Source: Thermoanaerobaculia bacterium (GTDB lineage: Bacteria; Acidobacteriota; Thermoanaerobaculia; UBA5066). From it: a DNA stretch of 64,000 nt. The notes beneath the pieces are model-generated. The model worked only from the letters and a program-made list of their open reading frames with translations, searched no databases and had not been told where the DNA came from. Both the position numbers and the translations under genes were made by a program. The DNA is taken from the NCBI GenBank assembly GCA_963816185.1, contig CAWFJJ010000030.1, forward strand, positions 448,001 to 512,000, written 5' to 3'. This document shows, piece by piece, positions 32,312 through 62,444 of this stretch; within the stretch, counting starts at the first letter, position 1, and every line of letters starts with the position of its first letter.

Positions 32312-32371
32312 GCCGCTTCCACGCGCGTCGAGTTACGCTTCGGCACTCTGCTCGGGAGATTTTCTTAGAAG

Positions 32372-32959
32372 GTGAAAGAAGCGGTGGCGCGCCCCAGGCC
32401 CGTCTTCGTGGCGATCGGAATGGGCGCGAACATCGGCTCCCCCCGCCGCGCCTTTCGCCACGCCGCACAAACTCTCTTTCCCTTTCTAAGAAATCCGAAA
32501 ATTTCCCCCATCTACCGCACATCCCCGGTCGGAGGCCCATCCGATCAGCCCGATTACCTCAATGCCGTCATCGCCGGAACGACCTCGCTTCCTGCGAACG
32601 CCCTTCTTACCCTTCTCAGAAAATCCGAAATCTCCGCGGGTCGAAAGCCAGGCGGGCGGAGGAACGCGCCGCGCTCCCTGGACCTCGATCTCCTCCTCTA
32701 CGGAAACGAGCGGATCGCGACGCAGCGCCTGACGGTGCCGCATCCGCGCATGACGAGCCGATTGTTCGTCCTCGTCCCGCTCGCGGACGTCGCGCCGCGG
32801 CGCGTGGTGCCGGGAACCGGAAAGACGGTCGTGCGCCTTCTCGCCGAGACCCGGCGGCGCTCCACGGAGAGAGTCAGGCGGGCGCGGAAAGCGGGCGTGG
32901 CGCGGCCGGGCGCTCGACGAGCCGCGCGAGCGCGAACAGGAGAAGGGTCATCCGGTTGA
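32372..32959 (+). CDS. folK: 2-amino-4-hydroxy-6-hydroxymethyldihydropteridine diphosphokinase
   Basis: IGMGANIG, QPDYLNAV, PRSLDLDLLLYG, LTVPHPRM..RLFVLVPL. Confidence 0.93.
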   Translation: MKEAVARPRPVFVAIGMGANIGSPRRAFRHAAQTLFPFLRNPKISPIYRTSPVGGPSDQPDYLNAVIAGTTSLPANALLTLLRKSEISAGRKPGGRRNAPRSLDLDLLLYGNERIATQRLTVPHPRMTSRLFVLVPLADVAPRRVVPGTGKTVVRLLAETRRRSTERVRRARKAGVARPGARRAARARTGEGSSG

Positions 32960-34142
32960 AGAAGCGGACGGCCAGCGCGGGCTTCTCCACGTCGCCCGCG
33001 AGCACCGAGGTGACGGCCGCCCGTAGCGCGTCGAGCGGGGCCTTCTCGCAGAACAGGCGCGTGAAGACCGGATCGTAGTAGCCGTACACGAACGGGCGAA
33101 ATCGATTCACCATTCGGCACGTGGTCTTCGCGTACTCCGAGAAGTCCGCCGCGTCCACCCGGCCCTTTTTTGCGAGCGCCGCGTCGACGACTCTCGCCGC
33201 GCGGATGCCCGCCGACATCCCGAGGAACACGCCGGTGGAAAAGACCGGGTCGAGGAACGTCGCCGCGTCACCCACGAGCGCCCATCCGTTGCCCGCGTAC
33301 CGCTCCGACGTGAAGGAATAGTCCGAGACCGCCGAGACTCCGGTGATTCTTCGCGCCGACGCAAGGTACTCGCGCATCTTCGCGGACCTTCCGAGGATTT
33401 CGTCGAGCCGTTCCTCGTGCGTCTTTCCAGAAAGCGTCTCGAGGACCTTGGGGTCGAAGACGGCACCCACGGATGCCGAGCCGTCCGAGAAGGGAATCAC
33501 CCAGTACCAGATGTCCGCCACGAACGGCAGCAGGATGTCGCCGGCGCGCTCGCCTTCGCCGCGAAAGGCGCCGTCGAAGTGCGCGTACAGGGCGGCCTTC
33601 CGGAGATTCGAGTCCGGGCGCCTCAACTTGAGGCGAGAGGCGAGAAGGGCCGCCTGTCCCGTCGCGTCGAGGATCACCTTCGCGCGGATGTCCTCGGGCC
33701 CGCCGGGAGACGAAAGGTGGACCCCCACGGCGCGTTCGCCTTGGAAGATCACCCCCTCGGCCTTCAAGCCGCGGCGAACCTGTGCTCCCGACTTCCGCGC
33801 ATGGTCGGCGAGAAGGCCGTCGAAGTCCCTTCGCTTCACGTGAAAAGCAGACGGGTGCTCGGCGTTCCAAGCCTCGCGGAAGATCACCTGGCGCGTGCCG
33901 CCCGTCGTCTCGTTCGTGAAGAGGGCGCCGTATTTCGGCTGAAACCCGGCGGCCCGGATCCTGGGAAGGACCCCCAGCTCTTCGAAGAGGGGCATGTTCC
34001 ATGGGAGAAGCGACTCCCCGATCTTGAACCGGGGCTCGGGATCGCGGTCGACCAGGAGCACCGACCGTCCGGCCCGCGCGAGAGCCGTCGCCGCGGCGCA
34101 GCCGGAAGGTCCGGCCCCGAGGACGAGGGCGTCGACCGTCAT
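32874..34142 (-). CDS. Flavin-dependent halogenase-like FAD oxidoreductase
   Basis: GAGPSG, KIGESLLP, GFQPKYGA, WYWVIP (WxWxIP), VGDAATFLDPVFSTGV. Confidence 0.8.
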   Translation of the reverse strand: MTVDALVLGAGPSGCAAATALARAGRSVLLVDRDPEPRFKIGESLLPWNMPLFEELGVLPRIRAAGFQPKYGALFTNETTGGTRQVIFREAWNAEHPSAFHVKRRDFDGLLADHARKSGAQVRRGLKAEGVIFQGERAVGVHLSSPGGPEDIRAKVILDATGQAALLASRLKLRRPDSNLRKAALYAHFDGAFRGEGERAGDILLPFVADIWYWVIPFSDGSASVGAVFDPKVLETLSGKTHEERLDEILGRSAKMREYLASARRITGVSAVSDYSFTSERYAGNGWALVGDAATFLDPVFSTGVFLGMSAGIRAARVVDAALAKKGRVDAADFSEYAKTTCRMVNRFRPFVYGYYDPVFTRLFCEKAPLDALRAAVTSVLAGDVEKPALAVRFFNRMTLLLFALARLVERPAAPRPLSAPA

Positions 34143-35056
34143 CTCGAAGAGCGGACGGAGGCTGGAAAAACGGCGCGCGTCTCGATCCGGAGCTGGTCGT
34201 TCGGAAGCGTCACGCGCGTGCCCGGCGGCACGGAGGACGTCAGCCACACGCTGCCGCCGATGACGCAGCCTTTCCCGATCACCGTCTCGCCTCCGAGGAT
34301 CGTCGCGCCCGCGTAGATGACGACGTCGTCCATGACGGTCGGATGGCGCTTCGTGCCCCGGATGAGCTCGCCGCGCTCGTTCTTCGGAAACGAGAGTGCG
34401 CCGAGCGTCACGCCCTGGTAGAGCTTCACGCGGTCGCCGATGTCCGTGGTCTCGCCGATGACGGTCCCGGTCCCGTGGTCGATGAAGAACGAGCGGCCGA
34501 TGCGCGCTCCGGGGTGAATGTCGACGCCGGTCTCGAGGTGGGCGAACTCGGTCATGATGCGCGGGATCAGCGGCACGCCGAGATCGTAGAGCGCGTGGGC
34601 GAGACGATAGGTGAAGACGGCCTTCACCCCTGGATACGCGAGCACGATCTCGTCGAAGCCGGTCGCCGCGGGGTCGCCGTCGAAGGCGGCCCGCACGTCC
34701 TCGGCGAGGAGGTCGGCGATTCCGGGCAGGGTCTCGAAGAAGCGCGTCGTGAGATCGTCCGCGCTCGAGCTCGGGCCTCCTTCGAGAGGAAGCGCCTTCT
34801 CGATCTCTTTCACGAGCCTCAGGTGAATGTGGAAGAGAACGTCCCCGAGGTGGTCGTGCAGGTTCGCGCGATAGAGCACCGCGTCTCCGTAAAAACCGGG
34901 GTAAATGACCTCCTGCAGCAGCCGAAGGATCTCGATGATCTCCTTCTTCTGGGGCCTCGGCGCCGCGTCGATGGCGGACAGCAAGGGGCGGTTCTCGGCC
35001 TCCGTCACGATGCGGTCGATCGCCGTGCGCAGGCGGTTGTCGCTCACCGGACTCAT
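34139..35056 (-). CDS. cysE: Serine O-acetyltransferase
   Basis: GDPAA, YPG, TGVDIHPGARIG, FIDHGTGTVIGET, YQGVTLGA, KRHPT. Confidence 0.9.
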   Translation of the reverse strand: MSPVSDNRLRTAIDRIVTEAENRPLLSAIDAAPRPQKKEIIEILRLLQEVIYPGFYGDAVLYRANLHDHLGDVLFHIHLRLVKEIEKALPLEGGPSSSADDLTTRFFETLPGIADLLAEDVRAAFDGDPAATGFDEIVLAYPGVKAVFTYRLAHALYDLGVPLIPRIMTEFAHLETGVDIHPGARIGRSFFIDHGTGTVIGETTDIGDRVKLYQGVTLGALSFPKNERGELIRGTKRHPTVMDDVVIYAGATILGGETVIGKGCVIGGSVWLTSSVPPGTRVTLPNDQLRIETRAVFPASVRSSR

Positions 35057-35060
35057 TCTC

Positions 35061-35924
35061 TCACCGGCCGGCCCAGTTCTTCAGAAGCTGCGCCGATTCC
35101 TCCTGGGTCTTTCGGTTCTCCACGAGATAGTCCGGATCCGGGGTCTCGGTGAGGATCTTCTCGAGCATCGCGCGCGCCTCGGCCCGGTGGGCGGGCTCGT
35201 AGTCCCACATCGCTTCGGCGAGAAACTGGCGGCCCACGAGGTTTCGCGGCCCGACCTCCACGGCGAGCCGGAGATTCTTCAGCGCGAGAGCGCGCGACGC
35301 CCAGCCCGTGAAGAACGGGATGGCCGGCGTCTGGTGATGAAGCCGGCCCAGAACGCGGTATCCGCCGCCTCCGTCGTACCGTGGGTCGAGCAGGATGACG
35401 GCCTGAGCGTAATCGCGAATCTTCGAGGCAGCCCCCTGTCTCACCGCCGCGGTCTTCCCGAAGGCGAGAGCCCATTTGCCCCAGTCGACCGCGGCCCAGA
35501 GGAACGAGGGGCAGGCTGCGGCGTTTCCCTTGACGTAGGGGACGAGCTCAACGGGGGTCGCACTCGTCAGGTCCCGGCGCGCCTCTCGGCCGGCCTCTCC
35601 CCTCAGGATGATGAGGGTCTGCTCGGCGACCGTCCGCCCTTCGTCGAAGATCGTCCGCTTTTGGGCGACGTCGTTCGTCGTGTGCTCGCCCTTGAAATAC
35701 AGGGCGCGCATGAGGCGCCAACGTACCTCGAGCGAATCCGGTTTTGCGGCGAGAGCGGCACGACAGGCGTCGATCACGAGATCGATCGGGCCGGAAAGAG
35801 CGTGGCCGCCCGTGGAGCCCTCGGCGCGAAGCGCCCAGAGCCGGTCCATGTCGGCGGGCTTCGGAGTCGGCTCGGAAGCACCGAGGAGACCCGGGAGGAC
35901 GAACAGCCAGGCAAGGGAGCGCAT
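35061..35924 (-). CDS. Secreted TPR-like helical protein
   Basis: Signal peptide MRSLAWLF...; WRLMRALYFKG, LDPRYDGGGGYRVLGRLH TPR-like helices. Confidence 0.6.
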   Translation of the reverse strand: MRSLAWLFVLPGLLGASEPTPKPADMDRLWALRAEGSTGGHALSGPIDLVIDACRAALAAKPDSLEVRWRLMRALYFKGEHTTNDVAQKRTIFDEGRTVAEQTLIILRGEAGREARRDLTSATPVELVPYVKGNAAACPSFLWAAVDWGKWALAFGKTAAVRQGAASKIRDYAQAVILLDPRYDGGGGYRVLGRLHHQTPAIPFFTGWASRALALKNLRLAVEVGPRNLVGRQFLAEAMWDYEPAHRAEARAMLEKILTETPDPDYLVENRKTQEESAQLLKNWAGR

Positions 35925-35987
35925 GGCCTCCACTATACTGGCGCGCCTCTTGCGAGGAGGCGCACGCACGAAACACGAGGTGCCGCC

Positions 35988-36311
35988 GTGGCTGACCAGC
36001 CTTCCAAGCCCGAATCCCAGCCTCCGTCCCTCCAGTTCTCGATCGACGACTCGGTTGCGAACGGCATCTACGTAAATTTCGCGAACATCATTCACAACCC
36101 CGCGGAGTTCGTCCTCGACTTCGGGCGCATCGTGCCCGGCCGCAGCGACGTCCGCGTCCTGTCGCGCATCCTCACGACCCCGGTCCACGCCAAGCAGCTC
36201 CTCAACGCCCTTGCCCAGAACGTAACTCTCTACGAAAAGACCTTCGGCACCATCCGCACCGACTTCGAGGCGCCGCGATCAGGCGGCACGGAGTCCTTTC
36301 GGCCCAACTGA
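35988..36311 (+). CDS. DUF3467 family protein
   Basis: GIYVNFANIIHNPAEFVLDF, RILTTPVHAKQLLNALAQNVTLYEKTFG. Confidence 0.85.
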   Translation: MADQPSKPESQPPSLQFSIDDSVANGIYVNFANIIHNPAEFVLDFGRIVPGRSDVRVLSRILTTPVHAKQLLNALAQNVTLYEKTFGTIRTDFEAPRSGGTESFRPN

Positions 36312-36333
36312 CCCAGCAAGGAAATCACGAGCG

Positions 36334-36864
36334 ATGAATCCACGAGCTCTCTCCGCCTGTCTCCTCGGCCTCACCTTTTCCTTCTCGATCGGCGGCCCCG
36401 CGTCGGCGGGCCCGGCCACACAAGAGAAGTCCGGGGCGTCCGCGCCGACGCCCGCCCCTCCCGAGGCCCCCATCTTCGATTCGGAGGCGATCGGAGAAAA
36501 GCAGATCGCCGAGTACCAGAAGGTGTGCCTGGACTCGGGCCGCCGGCTCCTGATCGTCTTCGGCACGAACGACTGCGCCGCGTGCCGCGCGTTCAACCAC
36601 GCGCTCCACAAGGACAAGTTCTTCGAGCCTTTCATCAACCAGTTCGTCCCCGTCTTCGTCGACGTCTCGAGCGGAACGAACGCCCAGCTTCTCGCCCAGT
36701 ACAACATCAATACGCACGCCGAGCAGCCCGGCATCGTGATCCTGATGCCCGACGGGCGCATCATCGAGGTCCTCGCACAAGGCGAGATGGCCGCTCTGAC
36801 TCGAAAAGGAGATGCCGCGGTGCAGGAGTTCTTCCTGGCACGATTCCTCAAGACCGAGAAGTAG
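36334..36864 (+). CDS. Exported thioredoxin-family protein
   Basis: Signal peptide, LLIVFGTNDCAAC (CxxC), cis-Pro region QPGIVIL. Confidence 0.8.
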   Translation: MNPRALSACLLGLTFSFSIGGPASAGPATQEKSGASAPTPAPPEAPIFDSEAIGEKQIAEYQKVCLDSGRRLLIVFGTNDCAACRAFNHALHKDKFFEPFINQFVPVFVDVSSGTNAQLLAQYNINTHAEQPGIVILMPDGRIIEVLAQGEMAALTRKGDAAVQEFFLARFLKTEK

Positions 36865-36900
36865 TCCCGCGGCGCCCCTTCCTCTGGCAAAATCGAGACG

Positions 36901-37512
36901 GTGGCACTCTCCAGGAGCGGAGTCCAGCCCGCGCCAGACCCGGGTGATCTGCTGCTCGTCGCGGCGGGGGACGACGCGGCCCTCACGCGTCTCGTCACGA
37001 GATGGCGCCAGCCGGTCTACGCTCTTTTCGAGCGTACACGAGAACCTTCCGCGGCGGCCGAGGCCACGATCCTGACCTTCGAACGCCTGGTCCTGACGGC
37101 GGAGGACTATGCGCCGGGGTCGCCCTTCCATGCGTTTCTGTGGGGCCTCGTCGCGAAAGTCCTGCAGGACGCGAAAATCGGCGACGTTCTCGAGATTCCG
37201 GCGCTGAAGCTCGCGGACTCCCCTTCCGCGCGGACGGCCCTCGTGCGCTCGGCGATCGCCGCGCTGCCGGCTGGCGAGCGGAGCGCGTTCCTGCTCACAC
37301 GCGTCGCCCGGCTTTCCGTCGCCGCCGCCGCGGAGGCGCTCGGCGTCTCCGAAACGGAAGTACGGCGACGCCTCGTACGCGCCCTCGAGAGTCTTCGGGT
37401 TTTTCTTCGTCCTCTTCTCGAGACCTCGGGGTCTTCGCCGACACGGACCGGCCCCGACGACGCGGATCGAGATGCGACCGGTTCCGACAAGCCGAAGATG
37501 GCAGCGTCGTGA
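36901..37512 (+). CDS. Divergent ECF sigma factor-like protein
   Basis: AAGDDAALTRLVTRW (region 1.2/2.1) and AIAALPAGERSAFLL...AAEALGVSETEVRRRLVRA (region 4). Confidence 0.7.
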   Translation: MALSRSGVQPAPDPGDLLLVAAGDDAALTRLVTRWRQPVYALFERTREPSAAAEATILTFERLVLTAEDYAPGSPFHAFLWGLVAKVLQDAKIGDVLEIPALKLADSPSARTALVRSAIAALPAGERSAFLLTRVARLSVAAAAEALGVSETEVRRRLVRALESLRVFLRPLLETSGSSPTRTGPDDADRDATGSDKPKMAAS

Positions 37513-38486
37513 CCTGCGACGAGCTGCGCGAACGAATCGTGGACCCGGCGTCGGCCGCGCAGGGCGGGCACGCGCCTGTCGTCGCCCATCTCGAGGAGTG
37601 CTCGGCCTGCCGGTCCGCGGCCCGCGACTACGCCGCGCTCGATCGGCTCATTCGCCCCGCGACGCCCTCAGAACCGCCGTCCGATCTCGAAGTGCGCCTG
37701 AGGCAGAGGCTGACGGTAAGACCCGGGTCGGCGAGGCGAAGCGCCTGGCTTCTCGCGGGCGCCGTGGCCGTGCTCGCGCTCGTGGCGTTCGCGGCTCCGC
37801 GCCTTCTGCGCGGGCGAAGCGCACCCTCGACCGCGGTCGGGGCGGTTTCAGCCCTGCCGGCCTCCGCGGTGCCGGCCGGCGCGCGTTCCGAGGTTCGTGA
37901 GGCTCCTCCGCCGGACATCGTCGCCGTCCACTCGACGCCGATCTCGTTCCAGGAGCCTCCGCTGACGGCGCAGGAAAAGTCCGAGGCGAGGGAGCTCCAC
38001 GAGTTCGATTTTCTCAGCTCGTTCCAGACGCTCGCGCGCCTCGACGCGTTCTTTCCCGAGCCCGTCGGACCGCGCGCGCCGGTTCCGATTCCGGCAGGCG
38101 GGTTCTCGTCGCGCCCTCCCGACTCGCCGGACGCGCTCACGGGTCGCTTCCTGGACTGGCAGCGCACTCCGAAGAAAGAGCGCGAGCGGCTCTTCGCGCT
38201 CGAACAGGCGTTCCGGAACCGCCCCGACGAGGAACGCGCGCTTCTCGAGGACCGATGGACGCTCGTGCGCGATTTCACCGAAGACCAGCGAGCGGGGCTC
38301 CGTCGCCTCGCGAGCCGCCTGGACGACCTCGACGCGCGCGCCCAAGAGCGCCTCGCGGCCGACATCCGGCTCATCGGCCGGCTTCCCAGGGAGGAGCGCG
38401 CGGCGCGCTGGCGGGCGCTCTCGTTTGCGAAGCCGCTCACCGGGCAGGAGCTCGCGAGCGCCGAGAGGCTTCTCCTCTCGCGATGA
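37509..38486 (+). CDS. Zinc-finger anti-sigma factor with TM and DUF3106-like helical C-terminus
   Basis: GTGA overlap with the sigma gene; HLEECSAC (HxxxCxxC), TM helix, helical repeats (WQRTPKKERERL, FRNRPDEERALL, LPREER). Confidence 0.7.
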   Translation: MTCDELRERIVDPASAAQGGHAPVVAHLEECSACRSAARDYAALDRLIRPATPSEPPSDLEVRLRQRLTVRPGSARRSAWLLAGAVAVLALVAFAAPRLLRGRSAPSTAVGAVSALPASAVPAGARSEVREAPPPDIVAVHSTPISFQEPPLTAQEKSEARELHEFDFLSSFQTLARLDAFFPEPVGPRAPVPIPAGGFSSRPPDSPDALTGRFLDWQRTPKKERERLFALEQAFRNRPDEERALLEDRWTLVRDFTEDQRAGLRRLASRLDDLDARAQERLAADIRLIGRLPREERAARWRALSFAKPLTGQELASAERLLLSR

Positions 38487-38508
38487 CGGTCCCGTAGACT
38501 CGCGCGCG

Positions 38509-41401: not shown

Positions 41402-41462
41402 ACGCAATTCGCAATTCTAGCATATAGGTTGACCAATTTCGGCTCGTGAGACGCCGGCTGTT

Positions 41463-42797: not shown

Positions 42798-42817
42798 CGA
42801 TTCACCCCACTCAGCGC

Positions 42818-42846
42818 AAGTTAGGCGTAAGTAGAGCGAAAGTCAA
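42818..42846 (-). promoter_or_regulatory. Putative sigma70 promoter of the radical SAM gene
   Basis: Minus strand TTGACT (42846-42841), 17-bp spacer, TAACTT (42823-42818). Confidence 0.55.
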
Positions 42847-42876
42847 GTCCAGCGCTAAAAAAAGGGTCTTGTCGCC

Positions 42877-43998
42877 TCAGGCCACGGGCCGCGCGATGAC
42901 GCCGCCGCCGAGGACGACTTCCGGCCGGACGACGTCGTAGAACACGGCCGACTGGCCGGGGGCAGCGGCACGCACCGGTTCCTCGAATTCCAGCCGTCCG
43001 CGGCCTTCCTCCTCGAGCGTGAGGCGGGCGGCCTGCTCGGCGTGGCGCGAGCGGATTCGGGCGAGCACGGGCACGGGCGACCTTACGCCTCCAGTCATGC
43101 GCACACTCACGCTTTCCAGGAAGACTTTCTTGGAAAGGAGAGAGGGGGCCGGCCCCACGACGACACGCGACTCTTCGGGAGAGGTCGAAATTACGTAGAG
43201 CGGCTCTTTCGAGGCGACGCGAAGTCCCCTTCTCTGTCCGATCGTGTAACCGAAGGTTCCCTCGTGCGCTCCGAGTCTCTCTCCACCTTCTAAGAGAATC
43301 TCCCCCGCCCGTGCCCCGCCGATTGCCGGAAGGTCGAGGCCGAGCCGTGGAGCCTCCTTCCGGATGAAGTCCGCCGGCGTCGACCCGGTCGGCACGAAAC
43401 AGATCTCCTGCGAGTCGGGCTTGTCCCAGTTCGGCAACCCTGCCTCGCGAGCGATCTCGCGCACCTCGGGCTTCGTCAGCTCGCCGAGCGGGAATCGTGC
43501 GAGGGCGAGCTGCTCTTCCGTGAGGTCGTAGAGGAAGTAAGACTGGTCGCGCGAGCGGTCGCGGGCTCTGAGGAGGCGCGGCGCGCCCGTGGACTCGTCG
43601 GCCCCGATACGCGCGTAGTGCCCCGTCGCGACGGCCTCGCAGCCGAGCGCCGCAGCGTTCTGGAGCAGCGTCTTGAACTTCACCTCGGTGTTGCACACCG
43701 TGCACGGGATGGGCGTCCTTCCCTCGAGATAGTCCGCGATGAACGGCTTCACGACCGCCTCGGTGAAACGCTGCTCAAGGTTCAGGACGAAGTGCGGCAC
43801 GCCGATCGCCGCCGCCGCGCGCCGCGCCACCGAGAGGTCGTCGAGCGTGCAGCAGCGGCCGGCGTCCGCCCCGGACCCGTCGCGGTCGTGGTTCCAGAGG
43901 TGCATCGACAGCCCCACCACGTCCGCGCCTTCGCGCTTGAGGAGGAGGGCCGCGACCGACGAGTCCACGCCCCCTGACATCGCGACCGCGATTCGCAT
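42877..43998 (-). CDS. mnmA: tRNA-specific 2-thiouridylase
   Basis: [55 protein letters not shown]. Confidence 0.97.
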
Positions 43999-46772: not shown

Positions 46773-46798
46773 ACAGGGAAGGATTTTTTGCTGATATT

Positions 46799-46820
46799 CG
46801 GGGCTGCAGATGCAGCCCCG
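46799..46820. terminator. GC-rich hairpin after phhB (terminator-like)
   Basis: CGGGGCTGCA-GA-TGCAGCCCCG inverted repeat in an AT-rich context; the U-tract is weak. Confidence 0.45.
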
Positions 46821-46835
46821 ATATTAGAAATCTCT

Positions 46836-46914
46836 TTCCCGGATATCCGGAGTCAAGGGCGCGCGTCGCGCGCCGCGTAGCGGTCGAAGACCCTTGACAC
46901 CGGACATCCGGGAA
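46836..46914. repeat. 24-bp inverted repeat (22/24), each arm TTGAC + palindrome CCGGAYATCCGG
   Basis: 46836-46859 TTCCCGGATATCCGGAGTCAAGGG vs 46891-46914 CCCTTGACACCGGACATCCGGGAA; 31-bp spacer. Confidence 0.85.
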
Positions 46915-47082
46915 GTATCCGAACCGCCGGATATGAGAAGAATCTCCGGCGCATTCCCTCAAGGTGTCGATTAATCAACAACAACCAGGGGTCGTGGCTC
47001 TTGCCTTGCCCCGGCAACTCCCCCGCCTAAATCACCTTCTAAGAAATACTTCCTTGCTCTCTGAACAAAAGTCCACATCCAC

Positions 47083-50092: not shown

Positions 50093-53308
<3,216 letters not shown>

Positions 53309-53321
53309 GCAGGCGGCCCAC

Positions 53322-54317
53322 ATGCGCAAAGCCCCCCGCTCTCTCCCGGCATTCGCGATCGCCGCGCTCGCGACCGCGGCAATCGCCTCCGCCGCCTGCC
53401 GGCAAAAACAGGACCCGAACATCGTCACCCTGAACGGGCGTCTCGAGGCGCCCACCGTGGATCTCGCGCCCAAGGTCGCCGGGCGCGTCGTCGAGGTGAA
53501 GGTCAAGGAAGGAGACCGCGTGAAAGCCGGCGACCTCCTCGTGACGCTCGACCTCGGCGAGACCGCTCTCGCCGTCGAGCGCGACCGCCGCGGGCTGGAA
53601 TCCAGCCAGGCGCGCTACCAGGACCTCGAGGCGGGAAGCCGGACGGCGGAAATCGCGCAAGCTCAAGCTGATCTCGCTGACAAAAAGGCCGCCGTCGAGC
53701 TCGCACGACGAGAGCTGGAGCGCCAGGAAGCCCTCCTTTCCAAGAAAGTAGGAACGCAGCGAGACACGGACACCGCCCGCACGACGATGGAACGGGCGGT
53801 GGCGAGCGAGAAAATGGCCAGTGATCGGTTGCAGCTTCTCCGCGAAGGCACGCGCTCGTGGCAGAAGGAGCAGGCGCGGCGGGACGTCGACCGTGCGCGC
53901 ACGGTCCTCAAGCAGTCCGAGACGACCGCCGGCGAGGCCGAGATCCATGCGCCCGCCGACGGCGTGATCCTCCACCGCATCGCCGAGCCGGGTCTCCTGC
54001 TCTCGCCCTCCCAGCCCGCGCTGACGATGGCGTTCTTGGGACGCCTCTACGTGCGGACGTTCATCCCCGAGACGAAGCTCGGTAAGGTGAGGACCTCGCA
54101 GGCCGCGACCGTCACAGTGGATTCGCTGCCGGGCCAGTCCTTTCCGGCACACGTCACGGAGATCTCCCCGGACGCCGAGTTCACGCCGAAGCCGGTCGAG
54201 ACGCGCGAAGAGCGCGTCAACCAGGTCTACGCCGCGAAGGTGGACCTCGATGCCGGGTGGAATGCGCCTCTCGTCCCGGGGCAGCCCGCGGAAGTGAGCG
54301 TCAAGGTCGGACCGTGA
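53322..54317 (+). CDS. HlyD family adaptor (YbhG-like)
   Basis: VAGRVVEVKVKEGD, AEFTPKPVETREER, PGQPAEV. Confidence 0.9.
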   Translation: MRKAPRSLPAFAIAALATAAIASAACRQKQDPNIVTLNGRLEAPTVDLAPKVAGRVVEVKVKEGDRVKAGDLLVTLDLGETALAVERDRRGLESSQARYQDLEAGSRTAEIAQAQADLADKKAAVELARRELERQEALLSKKVGTQRDTDTARTTMERAVASEKMASDRLQLLREGTRSWQKEQARRDVDRARTVLKQSETTAGEAEIHAPADGVILHRIAEPGLLLSPSQPALTMAFLGRLYVRTFIPETKLGKVRTSQAATVTVDSLPGQSFPAHVTEISPDAEFTPKPVETREERVNQVYAAKVDLDAGWNAPLVPGQPAEVSVKVGP

Positions 54318-55246
54318 TCGAGACCCGGGGCCTCACCCGGAAGTTCGAGAGAGTCGAGGCCCTGAAGGGAATCGACCTGTCGATCGACAAGGGCGAGCTC
54401 TTCGCGCTCATCGGACCCGACGGCGCCGGCAAGACGACGTTGTTCCGAATAATCGCCGGCCTTCTCGCACCAACCGCGGGCATCGTGCGCATGGCGGAAA
54501 ACATCGCGTTTGGCTTCGTCCCGCAGCGCTTCAGCCTCTACGAAGACCTTTCGATCGACGAGAACCTCTCGCTCAGGGCGCGGCTCTACGACATCCCCGA
54601 CGACGTGGCGGCGAATCGCGCGAAGGACCTCCTGGCACGCGTCGGCCTCGACCGCTTTGGGCGTCGTCTCGCGGGGGCGCTCTCGGGGGGCATGAAGCAG
54701 AAGCTCGCGCTCGTCTCGGCGCTGATGACGCAGCCGCCGCTCCTTCTTCTCGACGAGCCGACGACAGGCGTCGATCCGGTCTCGCGCCGCGAGTTCTGGC
54801 TGCTCCTCAACCGGCTGCATCACGAGGGCCTGACGATCGTCGTCTCGACGCCGTACATGGACGAGGCGGAGTACGCCACTCATCTCGCGTTCCTCGACCG
54901 GGGACGCCTGTCCGCTTTCGGCACACGCGGAGAGATCCTCGCCTCGTATCCGCGGCCGCTCGTCGAGGTTCGGTCGTCGAAGAGGTTCGAGGTCAAGAAG
55001 AGACTCGAAAGCGTGGAAGAGGTCGACGACGTCTCGCTTTTCGGGACGAGGCTGCACGTTCGCGGAAGAGAAAAGAAGGAGAAGGCGGGGGATTTCTTAG
55101 AAGGTAGATTGCGCGATGCGCTGGCGGGGCTCGTCCCGGCGGACGACATCCGGCGGGTGCAACCCAGCCTCGAAGACGCATTCGTGCTATTCAGCGAGGC
55201 TGAAGAGCCGGAGGAAAAAGGCGCGGAAAAGGGAGAGGCCGCATGA
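54314..55246 (+). CDS. ABC transporter ATP-binding protein (YbhF N-half-like)
   Basis: GPDGAGKTT, LSGGMKQK, LLDEPTTGVDPVSRREFW, STPYMDEA. Confidence 0.93.
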   Translation: MIETRGLTRKFERVEALKGIDLSIDKGELFALIGPDGAGKTTLFRIIAGLLAPTAGIVRMAENIAFGFVPQRFSLYEDLSIDENLSLRARLYDIPDDVAANRAKDLLARVGLDRFGRRLAGALSGGMKQKLALVSALMTQPPLLLLDEPTTGVDPVSRREFWLLLNRLHHEGLTIVVSTPYMDEAEYATHLAFLDRGRLSAFGTRGEILASYPRPLVEVRSSKRFEVKKRLESVEEVDDVSLFGTRLHVRGREKKEKAGDFLEGRLRDALAGLVPADDIRRVQPSLEDAFVLFSEAEEPEEKGAEKGEAA

Positions 55247-56322
55247 GCGACCAGCCCCCAGGCCGCGCGCCGGCCTCCCCCCCGCCGCCTTCTAAGAAGT
55301 CTTCCTCTTCGCCCTCGTCTTCCTCCTCTCCGAATTCCTCTTCCCCTTCTAAGAGATCTCTCTCTTCCTCTTCTTCGTCCTCCTTCCTGAGCTGTGAGAA
55401 CCTGACGCGGAAGTTCGGCACGTTCGTCGCCGTCGACCACGTCTCGTTCGACGTTCCCCGCGGCAAGGTCTTCGGCTTTCTCGGCCCGAACGGCTCGGGG
55501 AAGTCCACGACGATCCGGATGTTGACGGGGCTCCTCGCACCCTCCGACGGGAGCGCGCACATGCAGCCGGATGGCCGGACGCTCGACGTCGCGCGCGACA
55601 CCGACGCGTGGAAGACGCATCTCGGGTACATGAGCCAGAAGTTCTCTCTCTATCTCGACCTGACGGTGGAGGAGAACCTGTCGTTCTTCGGATCCATTTA
55701 CGGCCTTCCAAAAGAGCGCCTTGCCGGCCGCATCAAGGAGCTGTCCGGGCGCCTGCACTTCACGAAGCTCCTGCCGGCGCTCACGGAAGGGCTCTCGACG
55801 GGCTATCGCCAGCGCGTCGCGCTCGCGGCCGCGCTCCTCCACGAGCCGGAGCTCCTGTTCCTGGACGAGCCGACCGGCGGGGTCGATCCGAGAGGACGGC
55901 GCCTCTTCTGGGATCTCATCTACGAGCTCGCGGCCGACAAGGGAATGACCGTCCTCGTCACCACGCATTACATGGACGAGGCCGAGCAATGCGACCGGCT
56001 CGCGTTCATCCTCGACGGAGCGCTCATCGCCGAAGGGGCGCCGCCCGACCTCAAGCGCGACCTCGCCGACCGCATCGTGCAGGTCACGCCACCCTCCGAC
56101 CCGTTCCTGGCGCTCGAGGAGGTCCAGCGGGATTCCGCGCTCGAGGACGCGTATCTCTTCGGGGCACGGCTTCGCGCGGTCGCGAAGCCCGGCACGGTCG
56201 AGGCCGCCCGGAGCCTGCTCGCCCGCTTCGCCCCGCCGGAGCCCGCCGAGCCCTCGCTCGAGGACGTGTTCGTCTCGCTCGCGCGCAAGCAGAAGAGGTC
56301 ACGGGAGGAGGTCGCGGCATGA
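55243..56322 (+). CDS. ABC transporter ATP-binding protein (YbhF C-half-like) with Ser-rich N-terminal extension
   Basis: GPNGSGKST, GYMSQKFSLY, LDEPTGGVDP, TTHYMDEAE. Confidence 0.93.
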   Translation: MSDQPPGRAPASPPPPSKKSSSSPSSSSSPNSSSPSKRSLSSSSSSSFLSCENLTRKFGTFVAVDHVSFDVPRGKVFGFLGPNGSGKSTTIRMLTGLLAPSDGSAHMQPDGRTLDVARDTDAWKTHLGYMSQKFSLYLDLTVEENLSFFGSIYGLPKERLAGRIKELSGRLHFTKLLPALTEGLSTGYRQRVALAAALLHEPELLFLDEPTGGVDPRGRRLFWDLIYELAADKGMTVLVTTHYMDEAEQCDRLAFILDGALIAEGAPPDLKRDLADRIVQVTPPSDPFLALEEVQRDSALEDAYLFGARLRAVAKPGTVEAARSLLARFAPPEPAEPSLEDVFVSLARKQKRSREEVAA

Positions 56323-57434
56323 AACGATTCCTGGCCCTCGCCCGCAAGGAGTTCCTGCAGCTCAAGAGGGACCCCCTGACGCTGCGCATGATCGTCATGG
56401 TCCCGCTCCTGCAGACGATGATCTTCGGCTACGCGATCAACTTCGACGTCAAGCACCTGACAACGGCGGTCCTCGACGAATCGCGCTCGTACGAGAGCCG
56501 CGAGCTCGTTGCGAAGATGACCGCGAGCGAGTACTTCGACGTCGTGAGGTATGTCGAGTCGCAGGCGGAGCTCCGGCGCGAGATCGACTCGGCGCACGCG
56601 TCCGTCGGCCTCGTGATCGATGCGAACTTCGGGAAGGACATCCACCGCAGCGCGCCGGCGCACGCGCTCCTCATCGTGAACGCGTCGGACACGACGACCT
56701 CGTCGCAGGCGATGGCGATCGCGAGCGGGATCGCGAACGGCCTGTCGATCAACCTTCTCGCTCAGCGCGCGGGCTGGAAGAGCTCCTCGCTGCCGGTCGA
56801 CGTGCGCGTCAGGCCCTGGTACAACCCGGATCTCCGCACGGCGACGTTCATCATCCCCGGCCTCATCGCGATCATCCTGACGTTCACGCTCATCCAGTTC
56901 ACGGCGATGGCGATCGTCCGCGAGAGGGAACGCGGCACGCTCGAGCAGCTCCAGGTCACGCCGGTGACGCGCATCGAGCTCATCCTCGGCAAGATCGCGC
57001 CTTTCGTCGTGATCGGATTCTTCCAGCTCACGCTCATCATCGTTCTGATGCGGTTCCTGTTCCAGGTGCCGATCGCGGGCAGCGTCCTCGAGCTCTATGC
57101 CGCCGGGCTCATGTTCATCGCGGCCGTGCTCGGACTCGGAATGCTCCTGTCCACGCTCGCGAAAACGCAGATGCAGGCGATGCAGATGTCGTTCTTCTTC
57201 CTCCTGCCGTTCGTGTTCCTGTCGGGCTACGTCTTCCCGATCGACGGGATGCCGAAGTTCTTCCAGTTCATCACGTACCTGATCCCGGCGAAGTACTTCA
57301 TCCAGATCGTGCGCGGCATCGTGCTGAGGGGCGCGAACCTGTCCGAGCTTCTCGAGCCGATCGCGTGGCTCACCGGTTTCACGATCTTCATCATCGTCCT
57401 GGCGATCGCGCGGTTCCGGAAGACAACGGCGTAG
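56319..57434 (+). CDS. ABC-2 permease (YbhS/YbhR-like)
   Basis: ATG 56319, KEFLQLKRD, WYNPDL, IVRERERGTLEQL, LSGYVFPIDGMP. Confidence 0.93.
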   Translation: MKRFLALARKEFLQLKRDPLTLRMIVMVPLLQTMIFGYAINFDVKHLTTAVLDESRSYESRELVAKMTASEYFDVVRYVESQAELRREIDSAHASVGLVIDANFGKDIHRSAPAHALLIVNASDTTTSSQAMAIASGIANGLSINLLAQRAGWKSSSLPVDVRVRPWYNPDLRTATFIIPGLIAIILTFTLIQFTAMAIVRERERGTLEQLQVTPVTRIELILGKIAPFVVIGFFQLTLIIVLMRFLFQVPIAGSVLELYAAGLMFIAAVLGLGMLLSTLAKTQMQAMQMSFFFLLPFVFLSGYVFPIDGMPKFFQFITYLIPAKYFIQIVRGIVLRGANLSELLEPIAWLTGFTIFIIVLAIARFRKTTA

Positions 57435-57444
57435 GCGCGGGCGC

Positions 57445-58110
57445 ATGATGGACGGGGCCATGGAAGCCGAAGACGAACAGCCCGCGAAACCGGTCCTGAG
57501 GGGCGTCCTCCACGAGGTCGCCGCGTTTGCGGCGGCGGTCGCCGGGGGCGTCCTCGTCCTCAACGCCTCCGGGCCGCGCGCACGCGCCGGGGCGATCGTC
57601 TACGGGGTCTCCCTCGTCGCGCTCTTCGCCGTGAGCGCCATCTACCACCGGCCCACGTGGTCCGAGCGCGTCCGCCGGGTTCTCAGGCGCGTCGACCATT
57701 CCGCGATCTTCCTGCTCATCGCCGGGACGTACACGCCGTTCGCTTTCCTTCTCGAGAACCGCGCGGGATGGGTTCTGCTCGGCGTCGTGTGGGCTGGCGC
57801 GCTCGTCGGGATCGTCCTGTCCATCGCATGGGTGGGGGCGCCGAAGGTCCTCGTCGCCGCCGTGTGCGTCCTCCTCGGCTGGGCGGCCCTTCCGATCCTG
57901 CCGGCGCTGAAAGCGGCGCTCGGAACGGGAGCCGTCGTCCTGCTCGCCGCGGGCGGCGTCGTGTACAGCCTGGGCGCGATCGTTTACGCCGTCCGGCGTC
58001 CGAATCCCTTTCCCAGGGTCTTCGGGTACCACGAGGTCTTCCACGCGCTCGTGATCATCGCGGCCGCCTGCCATTTCGCGGTCGTGGCGGAAGCGATCCG
58101 GGCGCTCTGA
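57445..58110 (+). CDS. Hemolysin III (PAQR/TrhA) family membrane protein
   Basis: SAIYH, DHSAIFLLIAGTYTP, GYHEVFH. Confidence 0.92.
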   Translation: MMDGAMEAEDEQPAKPVLRGVLHEVAAFAAAVAGGVLVLNASGPRARAGAIVYGVSLVALFAVSAIYHRPTWSERVRRVLRRVDHSAIFLLIAGTYTPFAFLLENRAGWVLLGVVWAGALVGIVLSIAWVGAPKVLVAAVCVLLGWAALPILPALKAALGTGAVVLLAAGGVVYSLGAIVYAVRRPNPFPRVFGYHEVFHALVIIAAACHFAVVAEAIRAL

Positions 58111-58149
58111 CGACAGCCCCGGCGCGCGGGCGGTCCGGCGGCCGTATCG

Positions 58150-58413
58150 TCAGTGGCCGGAGCAAACGGGCACGGACCCGAGGGAGACCTCGTCCCCGCG
58201 ATGCTCGAGCTTGCCGTGCGACGCGAGGAAAGCGAGCACCTCGTGGAACGAGAAGCGGTCGCCATGGCAGTTCCCGTACACCGCGTCGACGCCGAACGCG
58301 CCGGACGCCGCGTTTCGGAGAGCTTCGACGCTCGCTTTCCCTCCCATCTGCTGGAGAAGGGAAAGCAGGTCGTGACCGAAAACGGGCGCACGCGCCGGGA
58401 CGAGACTGTTCAT
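58150..58413 (-). CDS. YecH/DUF2492-like metal-binding protein
   Basis: GHDLL, FG..A.Y.NC, FLASHGK, C-terminal VCSGH. Confidence 0.75.
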   Translation of the reverse strand: MNSLVPARAPVFGHDLLSLLQQMGGKASVEALRNAASGAFGVDAVYGNCHGDRFSFHEVLAFLASHGKLEHRGDEVSLGSVPVCSGH

Positions 58414-58993
58414 TCGAAAAGGCTAGCACGCAAAGGACGACGCCTCCCTGGCATTCCGCGTGATTCAGATGCTTCAAGGGCACTCTTGGGGCCGCCCGGA
58501 GGCTCAACCCGAAGCGTGACGAGCAACCGTCCCACGCGTCCGTTCCCATCCAGGAAAGGATGGATCGTCTCGAACTGCACGTGAGCCATGGCGGCTTTCT
58601 CGAGCGGAGGCGTGCGCACGGGATCGTCGTGGAGAAAGCGTTCGAGCGCCGCCATGCACTCTTCGACGCGATCCGGAGGCGGCGGAACAAAGTGCGCGTT
58701 TCCCGGACGCGTGCCCCCGATCCAGATCTGGGTGCGCCGAAACTCGCCAGGCGTCCTGTCGGCACCGCGCCCCTTCGCCAGAAGAACTTCGTGAATCTCG
58801 CGCAGGAGGCGGTTCGAGAGCGGGAAGTCCGCTCGCAGTCGCTTGAGGCCGTGTTCGAGCGCCGCGACGTAGCGGGATACCTCCGTGACGTCGTCGAGCG
58901 GTACCCCCGAAATCTCCTCGAGTTCGAAGAGAAGCAGGTCGGAAAGGGACGACTGCGTCCCCTCTATTTGCGACGAGAGGACAGCCGTTTCAT
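58410..58993 (-). pseudogene. Fic-family adenylyltransferase remnant
   Basis: RBS + ATGAAACG at 58993 joins out of frame to AVLSSQIEGTQSSLSDLL...PGEFRRTQIWIGG...HVQFETIHPFLDGNGRVGRLL; similarity stops right after the Fic motif. Confidence 0.85.
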
Positions 58994-59015
58994 GGATTCC
59001 TTCCCTTGAAACGAA

Positions 59016-59063
59016 CCTTTAATAGCAACCCACGCTATTAAAGCGGCCGTATCCTTTAATAGC
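59016..59063. promoter_or_regulatory. Triple 10-bp motif CTTTAATAGC (forward, reverse, forward) upstream of the fic remnant
   Basis: 59017-59026 CTTTAATAGC, 59034-59043 GCTATTAAAG, 59054-59063 CTTTAATAGC. Confidence 0.7.
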
Positions 59064-59112
59064 GTCTCGCGGGGCGAAAGGAGCCAAGCGACGAGCGAGG
59101 TCGCAGCGGCGG

Positions 59113-59364
59113 TTAGTTCTCCTCGAACCCGCGTCCGGCGCCGCAGACTTCCGGCATGCGGCAGGCGCCGCCGCCGCAGGCGGTCGAAGGATCGAAGGCG
59201 CCCCTGGACGGCGACGCCGGCGGCGCTGCGAACGTCGAGAGCAGGCGCGAGACCTTCTTCGAACCGCACGACGAGCATTTCGGCGGCCGCGCCGTGTCGC
59301 CCGCAAGGACGAGGTCCTCGGTCTTCTTACCGCAATCCGAACACCGATATTCCAGAAGAGGCAT
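59113..59364 (-). CDS. FmdB family zinc-ribbon protein
   Basis: MPLLEYRCSDCG...CSSCGSKKVSRLLSTF, Cys-rich tail. Confidence 0.9.
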   Translation of the reverse strand: MPLLEYRCSDCGKKTEDLVLAGDTARPPKCSSCGSKKVSRLLSTFAAPPASPSRGAFDPSTACGGGACRMPEVCGAGRGFEEN

Positions 59365-59521
59365 GAAACGCTCCCACCGCCCATTCTACGGCCTCACGAG
59401 GCGTGGGACGACGCCTACCCTCGCGCGGCGGCGTGCGGCTGATTCAAATGCTCCATGCGGACGCCCTCCGCCGGGCCCACGTTTCGAACGGAGGCTCGAA
59501 AGGGCCTCTCGAGGAGGATTC

Positions 59522-59980
59522 ATGCGCGTCCAGGACGTGATGACCCGCCATGTGGAGACGATCGACGGTCAGGAGAACGCGCAGGTCGCGTTCGATTCCA
59601 TGAAGCTCAAGGGGATCCGGCATCTTGTCGTCAAGAGAGACTCGGAGCTCGTGGGCGTGCTCTCGAAGCGCGACCTGGGTGTGCCCGATCAGTACGACTT
59701 CCGCGAGAAGCACCGCGTCGCCGAGCTGATGACGCCGCAGGTCGTGACGGCCAGCCCGGACATGTCGGTCAGGCAGGCCGCGAACCTGATGCGCGGCCGC
59801 GCGATCGGATGCCTGCCCGTCGTGGAGGAGGGGCGCCGGAGCCGGCTCGTCGGCATCGTCACCGTGTCCGATCTCCTCGAGCTGCTCGGGCGCGGCGTCG
59901 ACCGCCCGGCGCAGGGCAGGCGCCTGACACTCAAGACACGGGCTCCGCGCGTCGACTCCAAGGCGAAGCGAATGCGCTAG
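59522..59980 (+). CDS. CBS domain pair protein
   Basis: GAGGAGG RBS, MRVQDVMT, IRHLVV, LVGVLS.RDL, IGCLPVV, LVGIVTVSDLL. Confidence 0.9.
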   Translation: MRVQDVMTRHVETIDGQENAQVAFDSMKLKGIRHLVVKRDSELVGVLSKRDLGVPDQYDFREKHRVAELMTPQVVTASPDMSVRQAANLMRGRAIGCLPVVEEGRRSRLVGIVTVSDLLELLGRGVDRPAQGRRLTLKTRAPRVDSKAKRMR

Positions 59981-59984
59981 GGGC

Positions 59985-62444
59985 TCAGAGCGCGACCCGG
60001 CGGAGCCGGAGCGCATTCGAGATCACGGACACCGAGCTCATCGTCATCGCGGCGCTCGCGATCACGGGCGAAAGGAGGAGCCCGAAGAACGGGTAGAGCA
60101 CGCCGGCCGCGATCGGGATGCCGATCACGTTGTACACGAACGCGAACGCGAGGTTCTGCCGGATATTTCTCATCGTCGCCTTCGAGAGGCGGCGTGCGCG
60201 CACGAGGCCCGAGAGGTCTCCTTTGAGAAGCGTCACATCCGCGCTCTCGATCGCGATATCGGTCCCGGTTCCCATCGCGATGCCCACGTCTGCAGCGGCG
60301 AGCGCCGGCGCGTCGTTCACACCGTCTCCCGCCATCGCGACGATCCGGCCCTCTCTTTTGAGGCGCGCCACGGCCTCGGCCTTGGCCGTCGGCAGCACTC
60401 CCGCGACGATCTCGTCGATCCCGAGCTCCATACCCACATTTTCGGCGGTCGCCTTCGCGTCGCCCGTGAGCATCACGACGCGAATTCCCAGGCCGTGCAT
60501 CTCGGCGATGGCGGCCGCTGCGGGGCCCTTGATCGGATCGGCCGCCGAGAGAAAGCCCGCCGGCTTGCCGTCCACGGCTACGAAGAGGACCGTGTGACCT
60601 TTCGCGCGCTCGGCGTCCGCTTCGGCGAGGAGGTCGTTCGGAAAGGGAGAAGAAGAGGAAGAGGAAGAGGAAGAGGAAAAGGAAGATTTTTCTTCGAATA
60701 GAGGAAGGGAACCGAGCACGACGGATCGGCCGTCCACCTTGCCCGCGATGCCCTTTCCGGGGATTGAAGAGAATTCCTTCGAAGGTGAAAGAGTCAGGCC
60801 CGCCGCCTCGGCGGCGGCGGCGACCGCAGCCGCCAAAGGGTGCTCGCTCGCGCGCTCGAGCGAGGCGGCCAGGCGCAGCAATTCCTTTTCATCGAACGCG
60901 CCGAAGGCGCGAATCTTCTCGACCTTCGGCTTCCCCTCCGTCAGCGTGCCCGTCTTGTCTACGACGAGCGTGTCCACTTTCTCGAGCTTCTCGAGCGCCT
61001 CGGCGTTCTTCACGAGGATGCCGGCCTGCGCGCCCCGCCCCGTGCCGACCATGATCGACATCGGCGTCGCGAGGCCGAGCGCACAGGGACACGCGATGAT
61101 GAGGACGGCGACGGCGTTCACGAGCGCGTGCGCGAGGCGCGGCTCCGGGCCGAACACCGCCCAGGCGGCGAACGTCAGGACCGAGACCAGAACGACCGCG
61201 GGCACGAACCACGACGCGACCACGTCCGCGAGGCGCTGGATGGGCGCGCGGCTGCGCTGGGCTTGGCCGACCAGGCGCACGATCTGGGCAAGGAGCGTGT
61301 CTCGTCCCACGCGCTCGGCCTTTACCACGATGCCGCCGACGCTGTTGAGCGTGCCGCCCGTCACCGTGCTCCCCCTCGTCTTCTCCACCGGCACCGGCTC
61401 GCCCGTCAGCATCGATTCGTCCACCGCGCTCGCGCCTTCGACGACGAGCCCGTCCACAGGCACTCTCTCGCCCGGCCTCACGCGCAGCCGGTCTCCGACG
61501 CGCACGTCCTCGAGTGGGACGTCCGCTTCGACGCCCGAGGCCTCGATCCGGCGCGCCGTCTTCGGCGCGAGGCCCAGGAGCGCCCGGATCGCCCCCGAGG
61601 TTCGCGCGCGCGCCCTCAGCTCGAGCACCTGCCCGAGGAGGACGAGAGTCGTGATGCCCGCCGCGGCCTCGAAGTAGACGTCGTGTACCGCTCCTGCGCC
61701 AGTGGTGCCGTGGCTCGGGAGATGGTCTGCAAAGTTTCTTTGAAGGCTCAGAAAGACTTCCGCGGTCCTGTAAAGGCTGTACAAGAAAGCCGCGCCCGTT
61801 CCGAGCGCGATGAGGGTGAACATGTTGAGATTCCGCGTTCTCAGCGAGGCCCAGCCTCTCTCGAAGAACGGCCATCCGCACCACAGGACGACCGGCGTCG
61901 CGAGGAGCAGCTGGACGATGAGGTTGAGGCGCGGTGGGAACGAGTCCCTCAGCGCGGGCACCAGCATCGCGCCCATCTCGAAGAGAAACAGCGGAAGCGT
62001 CAGACCCAGGCTCACCCAGAACCGCCGGGACATGTCCCGAAGCTCCGGGTTCTCCTCCTCCGCGGCTGTCGGCATCATCGGCTCGAGCGCCATGCCGCAG
62101 ATCGGGCAGGCTCCGGGCTTGTCCCTGATGATCTCGGGGTCCATGGGGCAGGTCCAGAGAGAGGGACCGGGGGACTTCTTAGAAGGTGAAGAGGGGATGG
62201 GCGCGGCAGGCTGCGACGGCGAGGCTGCTGCGGTGGCGGAAGGGCCTCCAGCGGTGTCCGTCTTTCTATTCGAAGAAAATCTTTCTGGCTCTTTCTTGAA
62301 TTTCTCCGCGCAACCCTTCGCGCAGAAATACCAGGTCTTCCCCCCGTACTCGACCTTCGCCGCGGCGCGCGCGGGATCCACGGTCATTCCGCAGACGGGA
62401 TCGATCTCGCCTGCGGGCGGCGGGGAGTGAACCGGCAGCTGCAA
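59985..62444 (-). CDS. copA: Cu(I)/heavy-metal P1B-type ATPase with YHS domain
   Basis: [58 protein letters not shown]. Confidence 0.93.

Follow-up and report, generated by a model that had tools for sequence, protein, structure and literature searches.

A stretch of 64,000 nucleotides from the genome of a Thermoanaerobaculia bacterium (assembly GCA_963816185.1, contig CAWFJJ010000030.1, positions 448,001 to 512,000; hereafter the window, C30:448001-512000 in our contig numbering) carries eight exact copies of a ten-nucleotide motif, TCTTAGAAGG. Short interspersed repeats have been studied extensively in Proteobacteria and hardly in Acidobacteriota, and an earlier note on this DNA had described the motif as intragenic, proposing that it was bound by a dimeric nucleoid, macrodomain or partition protein or served as a lineage-specific uptake sequence. 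The question raised by this locus is to what kind of element the motif belongs, and at which level it is read. The 10-mer is the core of a longer purine-rich, asymmetric and oriented arm of ~55 bp and no free-standing palindrome, and such arms usually occur as convergent pairs in this genome and its genus. In our estimation the chances are about even that the arms constitute a genus-specific family of short interspersed repeats, which would be recognised at the DNA level and resemble repetitive extragenic palindromic (REP) doublets forming hairpins (REPINs) and miniature transposable elements with inverted repeats (MITEs).

Abundance and anatomy of the arms

The genome of the window comprises 5,088,052 bp in 30 contigs, with ~67% GC and 94.9% completeness. 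The eight exact copies in the window, four per strand, were found where the earlier note had placed them, and no copy occurred in 100 dinucleotide-preserving shuffles. A genome-wide count against a background model, which that note had proposed, gave 216 copies versus 2.8 expected (order-3 Markov model), and TTTCTTAGAA was found 239 times versus ~1 expected. The 10-mer represents the most over-represented 10-mer family, with only A10/T10 words scoring higher. Considering these counts, together with the presence of the motif in all 18 other assemblies of the genus included in the scan and in contigs of four metagenome runs, an origin by chance, as a by-product of codon usage or as an artefact of assembly or polishing is hardly credible. 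It should be added that the excess of A10/T10 words was traced to positions 1147-2240 of a single 15.6-kb contig, C10, where 1028 T are followed by 65 A in an artefact-like manner.

Allowing up to one mismatch to the 10-mer yielded 12 sites in the window versus 1.32 expected, i.e. four beyond the exact ones. The claim of at least eight near-copies thus fails at one mismatch and finds its counterpart only in a position-weight scan, which returned 20 arm-like sites with scores of at least 12, 19 of them at or past position 32362. The absence of exact copies from the first 32 kb was reproduced; this part holds a single weak match at 4826 (score 13.4) and no arm scoring 14 or more.

The arm is laid out as a purine-rich run, GATT-TTCTTAGAAGG-TGAAGAGGG and a short G-rich stretch; in the consensus of aligned copies, purine-rich sequence and GATT are followed by the core TTCTTAGAA, GG, (T)GAA(G/T)AGGG and a short G-rich end. 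Around the core, between about -27 and +27, base composition deviates from that of the genome as a whole, and palindromy is limited to a 4+4 quasi-palindrome, TTCT-N-AGAA. The 9-mer core occurs 337 times genome-wide. As an nhmmer profile of the arm proved too insensitive for so short a motif, a weight-matrix scan was adopted, and it detected ~752 arms at scores of at least 18 versus ~170 in a reversed-sequence control, one made imperfect by the partial mirror symmetry of the arm. Core variants among the ~752 arms were TTCTTAGAA (324), TTCTTCGAA (155), TTCTTTGAA (43) and TGCTTAGAA (35).

Across the 5.09 Mb there is one arm per ~7 kb and one exact 10-mer per ~24 kb. The motif is nearly equally frequent on both strands (73 versus 76), in agreement with the lack of strand polarity noted before. 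Arm density is very uneven, with a variance-to-mean ratio of 4.7 in 50-kb bins. No chromosome-scale pattern of density was visible in the fragmented assembly of 30 contigs, in which origin and terminus are unplaced, and the suggested nucleoid macrodomain signal is in this assembly not borne out.

The arms are accompanied by a second, larger palindromic repeat of ~140 nt with two internal hairpins, present in ~45 copies per genome. Its ends begin with GATTTCTT, identical to the eight bases preceding the arm core, and it frequently lies next to arms or in the spacer of a pair and fills the same orthologous sites in other species. These observations suggest that the arm and the second repeat share one recognition system or one target.

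Convergent pairs and their spacers

Among exact cores with a neighbour at a distance of up to 400 bp, 61 pairs stood in the order '+ then -', versus 4 '- then +', 8 '++' and 4 '--', and 16 of the 61 convergent pairs were spaced 74-76 bp apart, which was the commonest spacing. The matrix scan gave the same picture, with 229 convergent pairs versus 11 divergent, 38 '++' and 37 '--'; 458 of the 752 arms (61%) belonged to convergent pairs. When the score required of the partner was relaxed, a convergent partner was present for 249 of 332 exact-core arms. The symmetric dimer site put forward earlier does not describe this arrangement, in which the conserved part is an asymmetric arm of ~55 bp and the recurring unit is a convergent pair, whose commonest spacing is 74-76 bp. 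The spacers between the arms are GC-rich and site-specific; few groups were alike among the 229, and these were traced to contigs duplicated as strain variants, to nested second repeats and to a single gene array.

Facing arms might also act in RNA, pairing in transcripts as a long stem that would stabilise, terminate or process mRNA, a role which has been reported of REP sequences. The consensus arms are indeed mutually complementary, and many pairs lie between genes of one transcription direction. However, no co-variation of left and right arms was detected at 29 positions in 252 pairs, where real partners equalled shuffled ones, and arm variants were uncompensated at one orthologous locus. 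Spacers folded no better than shuffles (mean z -0.12 versus +0.05 in random genomic controls, n=136); moreover, arms are oriented at random with respect to genes, and many of the pairs are situated within essential coding sequence. We therefore regard an RNA-level element as very improbable.

Arms in the window and their placement relative to genes

The arms and related sequences of the window are listed below.

32362..32372, + strand: arm core (exact), left arm of a pair, immediately upstream of the start codon of folK (HPPK)
32484..32492, - strand: right-arm core, TTCTTAGAA exact, flank differing; in folK, read as FLR, 122 bp from the left arm
32613..32621, - strand: second right-arm-like core, TTCTGAGAA; in folK, read as LLRK
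43127..43135, + strand: degenerate left arm, TTCTTGGAA; paired within mnmA with the 43286 arm
43286..43296, - strand: arm core (exact 10-mer); mnmA linker between HUP and PRC-barrel domains, ~residue 235
46782..46921, no strand assigned: one copy of the second, larger palindromic repeat, with terminal GATTTCTT as in the arms
47035..47045, - strand: arm core (exact); intergenic, adjoining another repeat, with no recognisable partner
51588..51598, + strand: arm core (exact); AcrB-type RND pump, loop after transmembrane segment 6, presence varying among 27 aligned orthologues
55094..55104, + strand: arm core (exact); C-terminal region of ABC ATPase 1, read as DFLEG
55288..55298, - strand: arm core (exact); Ser/Pro-rich N-terminal extension of ABC ATPase 2, read as PSKKS
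55345..55355, - strand: arm core (exact 10-mer), a further right arm in the N-terminal extension of ABC ATPase 2, where it is translated as PSKRS
60690..60783, + strand: two weaker arm-like sites, TTCTTCGAA and TCCTTCGAA; antisense in copA
62176..62186, + strand: arm core (exact); antisense in copA at ~residue 87, with the YHS domain on one side and the HMBD domain on the other
62269..62277, - strand: right arm, variant TTCGAAGAA; partner of the 62176 arm

Four arm pairs are thereby present in the window: 32362/32484, 43127/43288, 55094/55290 (with an extra right arm at 55347) and 62176/62269. The earlier count of six exact copies within genes was confirmed, as were the peptides quoted with it: EILLEGG in mnmA, EDLLRRK in the AcrB-type RND protein, GDFLEGR in ABC ATPase 1, PSKKS and PSKRS in ABC ATPase 2 and PSKKS in the copA-type P-type ATPase. 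All six (6/6) are located within linkers, loops or termini of the proteins.

Placement in the whole genome was assessed with gene calls from our own crude caller (4178 genes, 87% of the genome), on which the split into coding and intergenic cores rests. By these calls genes contain 167 of the 337 cores and intergenic DNA the other 170; with about half of the cores in the ~13% of the genome that is non-coding, the motif is not mainly intragenic. Cores in genes are 87 in sense and 80 in antisense orientation, and the intergenic arms are likewise unbiased toward neighbouring genes. A role as promoter, ribosome-binding site or terminator was rejected, the orientation being random and only ~16 of 90 start-facing arms lying within 35 nt of the start.

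Arms within coding sequences preserve the frame and fall in flexible stretches that join domains, or at the ends of the proteins, in mnmA, RND, ABC ATPase, copA and fmt. In the interdomain linker of fmt, the frame is open across the arm pair in four of five genomes despite widely differing spacer lengths. In relatives G002 and G014, the two neighbouring ABC ATPase domains form one open frame with the arm pair as linker (orthologues of window positions 54850-55560), and the arm pair hence marks a point of gene fusion or fission, these domains being fused in some species and separate in others. The K/E- or S/P-rich inserts in such proteins are derived from the repeat, which calls for caution on the part of annotators. 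As a separate observation, fmt of the present genome (C1 ~686,196-686,500) has a stop codon and a frame change inside the arm pair, reflecting either an assembly error or a split gene.

Filled, empty and deleted states of orthologous sites

At orthologous positions of related genomes the elements were present, absent or partial. In the RND loop, 13 of 27 aligned orthologues have the arm with 33-84 nt of extra sequence, the seven shortest hold only purine-rich codons of the KRKEEKKE type, and one genome has the second repeat there; allele lengths differ mostly by multiples of 3. At the ABC junction, three genomes show a compact ATGA overlap running directly into the conserved N-terminus, and in most others one or two right arms and a pyrimidine tract follow codon 3 as an in-frame insertion. 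Both sites, the N-terminus of ABC ATPase 2 and the RND loop, exist as short and long alleles. Related metagenome contigs were consistent with this variability: the short RND allele was seen among them, two lack 69 nt between the copA arms 62176 and 62269, and one lacks the second repeat at 46774-47026.

Intergenic sites displayed the same states. At C1:680503 the stop codons of two convergent genes are adjacent in four of five relatives, one relative has the second repeat, and the present genome has a 126-nt pair there. The convergent-gene junction C30:144487 is compact and free of arm-like sequence in six genomes and carries a pair in five, one of them nearly spacerless; degenerate closed forms were found in two genomes and pieces of the second repeat in three. 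G003 has a 'closed' form of this junction, with a single core between the outer half of one arm and that of the other; it would result from deletion between two nearly identical cores. The intergenic pair C1:135438 was compared in 27 genomes of the genus, of which ~20 keep the pair, in intergenic DNA of 150-280 nt, and four have two left arms. The intergenic DNA measures 9 nt in 2 of the 27, only a right-arm remnant is left in one, and in three the right arm remains with part of the spacer between the arms, which points to deletions. Beside the right arm of this pair an (ATCCGA)n hexanucleotide repeat (C1:135,520-135,560) varies from ~2 to 8 units among species.

Presence, absence and deletion variants at orthologous sites are the behaviour of an interspersed repeat element. 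It should also be added that many small contigs of the assembly (C14, C11, C27, C4, C15, C22, C10, C19, C13 and others) are variants of parts of large contigs, 92-99.6% identical to them, which indicates that the assembly mixes closely related strains.

Conservation of the core

Alignment of orthologues, as the earlier note had suggested, gave a divided answer: at least eight of the nine core bases were kept in 44 of 90 arm-by-orthologue comparisons, and the core was absent in 25 of the 90. Identity in aligned columns was 86% in the core, 84-88% in coding flanks, 70% in the purine tract, 73% from +9 to +20 and 65% from +21 to +45, in a profile that covers 16 arms and in which the aligner may favour matching cores. 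The peak at the core, perhaps somewhat inflated, agrees with the picture obtained by eye at C1:135438, where the right arm is nearly invariant across ~20 genomes, the middle of the spacer is variable and arm variants are uncompensated. A core that stays constant in non-coding DNA regardless of the direction of transcription argues for sequence-specific recognition of DNA. The earlier view that constraint acts on DNA rather than on protein is upheld by this result, by the use of several reading frames and both strands (87 same, 80 antisense) and by non-coding cores being conserved like coding sequence.

The same evidence could be accommodated by a host architectural or regulatory site that evolved in place, each arm being bound by an abundant protein similar to nucleoid-associated ones, an explanation we consider rather unlikely. 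Two convergent arms and their spacer would then make up one nucleoprotein module that was never mobile, and the insertions and deletions would represent turnover of low-complexity linkers, an account that likewise strikes us as doubtful. Coding-like conservation of the core in non-coding DNA would be expected of such a site, as would the persistence of arms at orthologous sites across species, the preferred spacing, which recurs in other species among the matches listed, and the random orientation relative to genes. Furthermore, the diffuse purine-rich outer boundary fits a preference for context better than the end of an element, and the purine tract is already there in empty alleles (the RND loop and one gene end). 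This account is weakened by the gain or lack of whole symmetric units of 125-280 nt at gene junctions that are compact apart from them, and by the second palindromic repeat with the same terminal GATTTCTT at the same sites in other species. The very uneven density shows no visible chromosome-scale pattern, and a candidate protein was not found.

Distribution among genomes and the published record

Besides the present genome, 18 of the genus were scanned for the 12-mer TTTCTTAGAAGG, and each of the 18 had 45-210 copies, with 0-3 in the reversed control; none was found in 12 genomes representing two sister families within the order. Out of 401 genomes sampled from the phylum, it was abundant only in the four that belong to the genus, and the other 397 had 0-4 copies, like the control. 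The motif was also present in contigs of the four metagenome runs mentioned above, which stem from three studies; among public runs, no RNA dataset carrying it was listed. Absence from related genomes and assembly artefacts, which the earlier note had named as possible refutations, are both at odds with these counts, and the motif is usable as a clean marker of the genus. In full-text searches of the literature no description of the motif or of the repeat family was found, including Acidobacteria in combination with MITE or uptake-sequence terms (the species tables of PMC3733652 lay outside this scope); for the 11-mer, the matches listed were unrelated papers only, none of them on bacterial repeats.

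Uptake sequences of Neisseriaceae and Pasteurellaceae are lineage-specific 9-12-mers, which occur equally on both strands, often as inverted pairs, at tolerated places of genes and with a density near 1 per kb. The arms resemble them in being a 9-12-mer over-represented ~75- to 250-fold in one genus only, in their equal strand counts (73 and 76), in their inverted pairs and in their occurrence in tolerated frames and linkers of genes. By analogy, the arms may represent a lineage-specific uptake signal: fragments bearing them would be preferentially imported and their alleles spread by recombination, keeping the core constant. We find this distinctly unlikely. Patchy filled and empty alleles, as well as a 'young' insertion with a unique spacer, would fit the import of whole alleles by recombination. 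The genome encodes pilMNO, a secretin, ComEC and DprA; yet, ComEC and DprA also occur in 10-11 of 14 control genomes and hence do not discriminate. The density of one arm per ~7 kb, or one exact 10-mer per ~24 kb, is about ten-fold below that of uptake sequences, and neither the strong enrichment in non-coding DNA, the long asymmetric purine-rich flank nor the strictly convergent pairs of ~75 bp with their preferred 74-76 bp spacing are features of such signals. The related proposal that the arms are a self-recognition signal for uptake and recombination, with alleles spreading by transformation-driven replacement and not by transposition, appears quite improbable too. Such replacement would explain the constant core, the patchy alleles and the unique spacer of the lineage-specific insertion. 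To our knowledge, no uptake-type sequence has been described outside Proteobacteria, and the arms would be the first, if this were true.

A proposed family of short interspersed repeats

With the alternatives set out, we return to a genus-specific family of interspersed repeats. Its elements would have entered, or been lost from, places tolerant of DNA, such as gene junctions, intergenic DNA, flexible linkers and protein ends. In proteins they stay in frame and would be translated as K/E/R-rich or S/P-rich filler. Each arm may be read, as double- or single-stranded DNA, by a putative sequence-specific protein other than a REP-associated tyrosine transposase (RAYT), which would account for a constant core amid drifting surroundings. 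Both this trans-acting protein and the mode of spread are what we infer from the patterns described above; the family with its geometry, its restriction to the genus, its indel variants, its retention in frame and its conserved core are observed.

A number of results weigh against this interpretation. No protein partner for the arms was found. Drivers of the RAYT type or of the type of terminal inverted repeat-associated tyrosine transposases (TIRYT) were rejected: PF01797 (Y1_Tnp) gave 0 matches in this genome and was detected in 4 of 29 genomes of the genus, and the one copy inspected, in G038, is flanked by unrelated inverted repeats. A parent transposon was rejected as well, no transposase having been found between arm pairs 400-6000 bp apart, and the termini of the IS110-like, rve/IS481-like and IS3-like families are unrelated to the arms. 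The outer ends of the arms are diffuse in the consensus profile, with no sharp boundary, and no clear target-site duplication was recognised at filled versus empty sites. Across ~16 loci in strain-variant contigs (92-99% identity) no gain or loss of arms was seen, only small indels in purine tracts. The absence of co-variation between left and right arms belongs here also, as does the finding that paired arms are not better conserved than single ones (flank identity to consensus 0.503 versus 0.489, p=0.36). The pair carried by this genome alone, C1:680503, has a spacer which is unique in the genome, and unique spacers, even in such a private pair, mean that ordinary replicative transposition does not explain the spread. 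They fit none of the readings well, be it a mobilising enzyme, an architectural protein or an uptake receptor. Finally, both the crude gene calls and the possible preference of the aligner for matching cores count among the weaknesses of the case.

Comparison with known repeat systems

In the pertinent passages of Bertels & Rainey (2011; PMC3116915), REPINs are inverted REP doublets with a preferred spacing of 71 bp and a less conserved spacer, for which the commonest short word serves as marker. In those of PMC3733652, the REP unit is an imperfect palindrome with a terminal GTAG or CGTC tag, and intragenic REPs are short repeats within protein-coding genes. So far as these passages go, the arms resemble the REPINs of Pseudomonas and enterobacteria in an over-represented word, inverted doublets (71 bp in theirs, 74-76 bp in the arms), hundreds of copies and a spacer less conserved than the ends. 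REPIN-RAYT systems are described in abstracts of other publications as mostly vertically inherited, and the arm repeat is confined to one genus. Unlike REPINs, the arms have neither a RAYT nor a palindromic unit, and no conserved GTAG/CGTC column; there are no compensatory changes and no spacer hairpin, doublets are not better conserved and about half of the cores lie in called genes. With four REPIN features failing (RAYT, tagged palindrome, compensatory changes and doublet conservation), we class the family with interspersed repeats and not as a REPIN. It is unusual in combining the geometry of REPINs with a lack of the transposase regarded as their driver, in a core constant across the genus while spacers are unique, and in lying in frame in linkers of housekeeping proteins, e.g. 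fmt and mnmA.

Similarity to MITEs consists in inverted terminal arms, small size, enrichment in non-coding DNA, presence or absence at orthologous sites and the second, more classical-looking palindromic repeat sharing the terminal GATTTCTT. In contrast to MITEs, there is no internal body common to the copies, no target-site duplication was seen and neither a parent transposon nor a transposase sharing these ends was detected.

Rickettsia palindromic elements (RPEs) are conserved over their full ~100-150 bp. Like RPEs and intragenic REPs, the present family includes in-frame repeats tolerated in genes, housekeeping ones among them; unlike in RPEs, conservation is limited to the arms. Neisseria dRS3 mosaic elements and Escherichia coli bacterial interspersed mosaic elements (BIMEs) are extragenic and consist of conserved repeats bracketing variable segments of 50-150 bp, and BIMEs bind host proteins. 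Conserved repeats around variable segments, and mosaics with other repeats, are common to both and to the arms, but the sequences are unrelated and the arms are partly intragenic. Should a cognate protein or an uptake bias be found, a genome-wide recognition system would be exposed in a major, poorly cultured soil phylum.

Other features of the window and the assembly

The arm-free first 32 kb of the window carries a pilM-pilN-pilO-secretin type IV pilus assembly operon (7706-13517, - strand) and also encodes relA/spoT (13803-16001) and secDF (22108-25035). The three insertion sequence families named above are present in the assembly in 4-5 copies each with ~99% identity, located near contig ends (C24:733,900-744,395, C25:606,500-615,600 and others).

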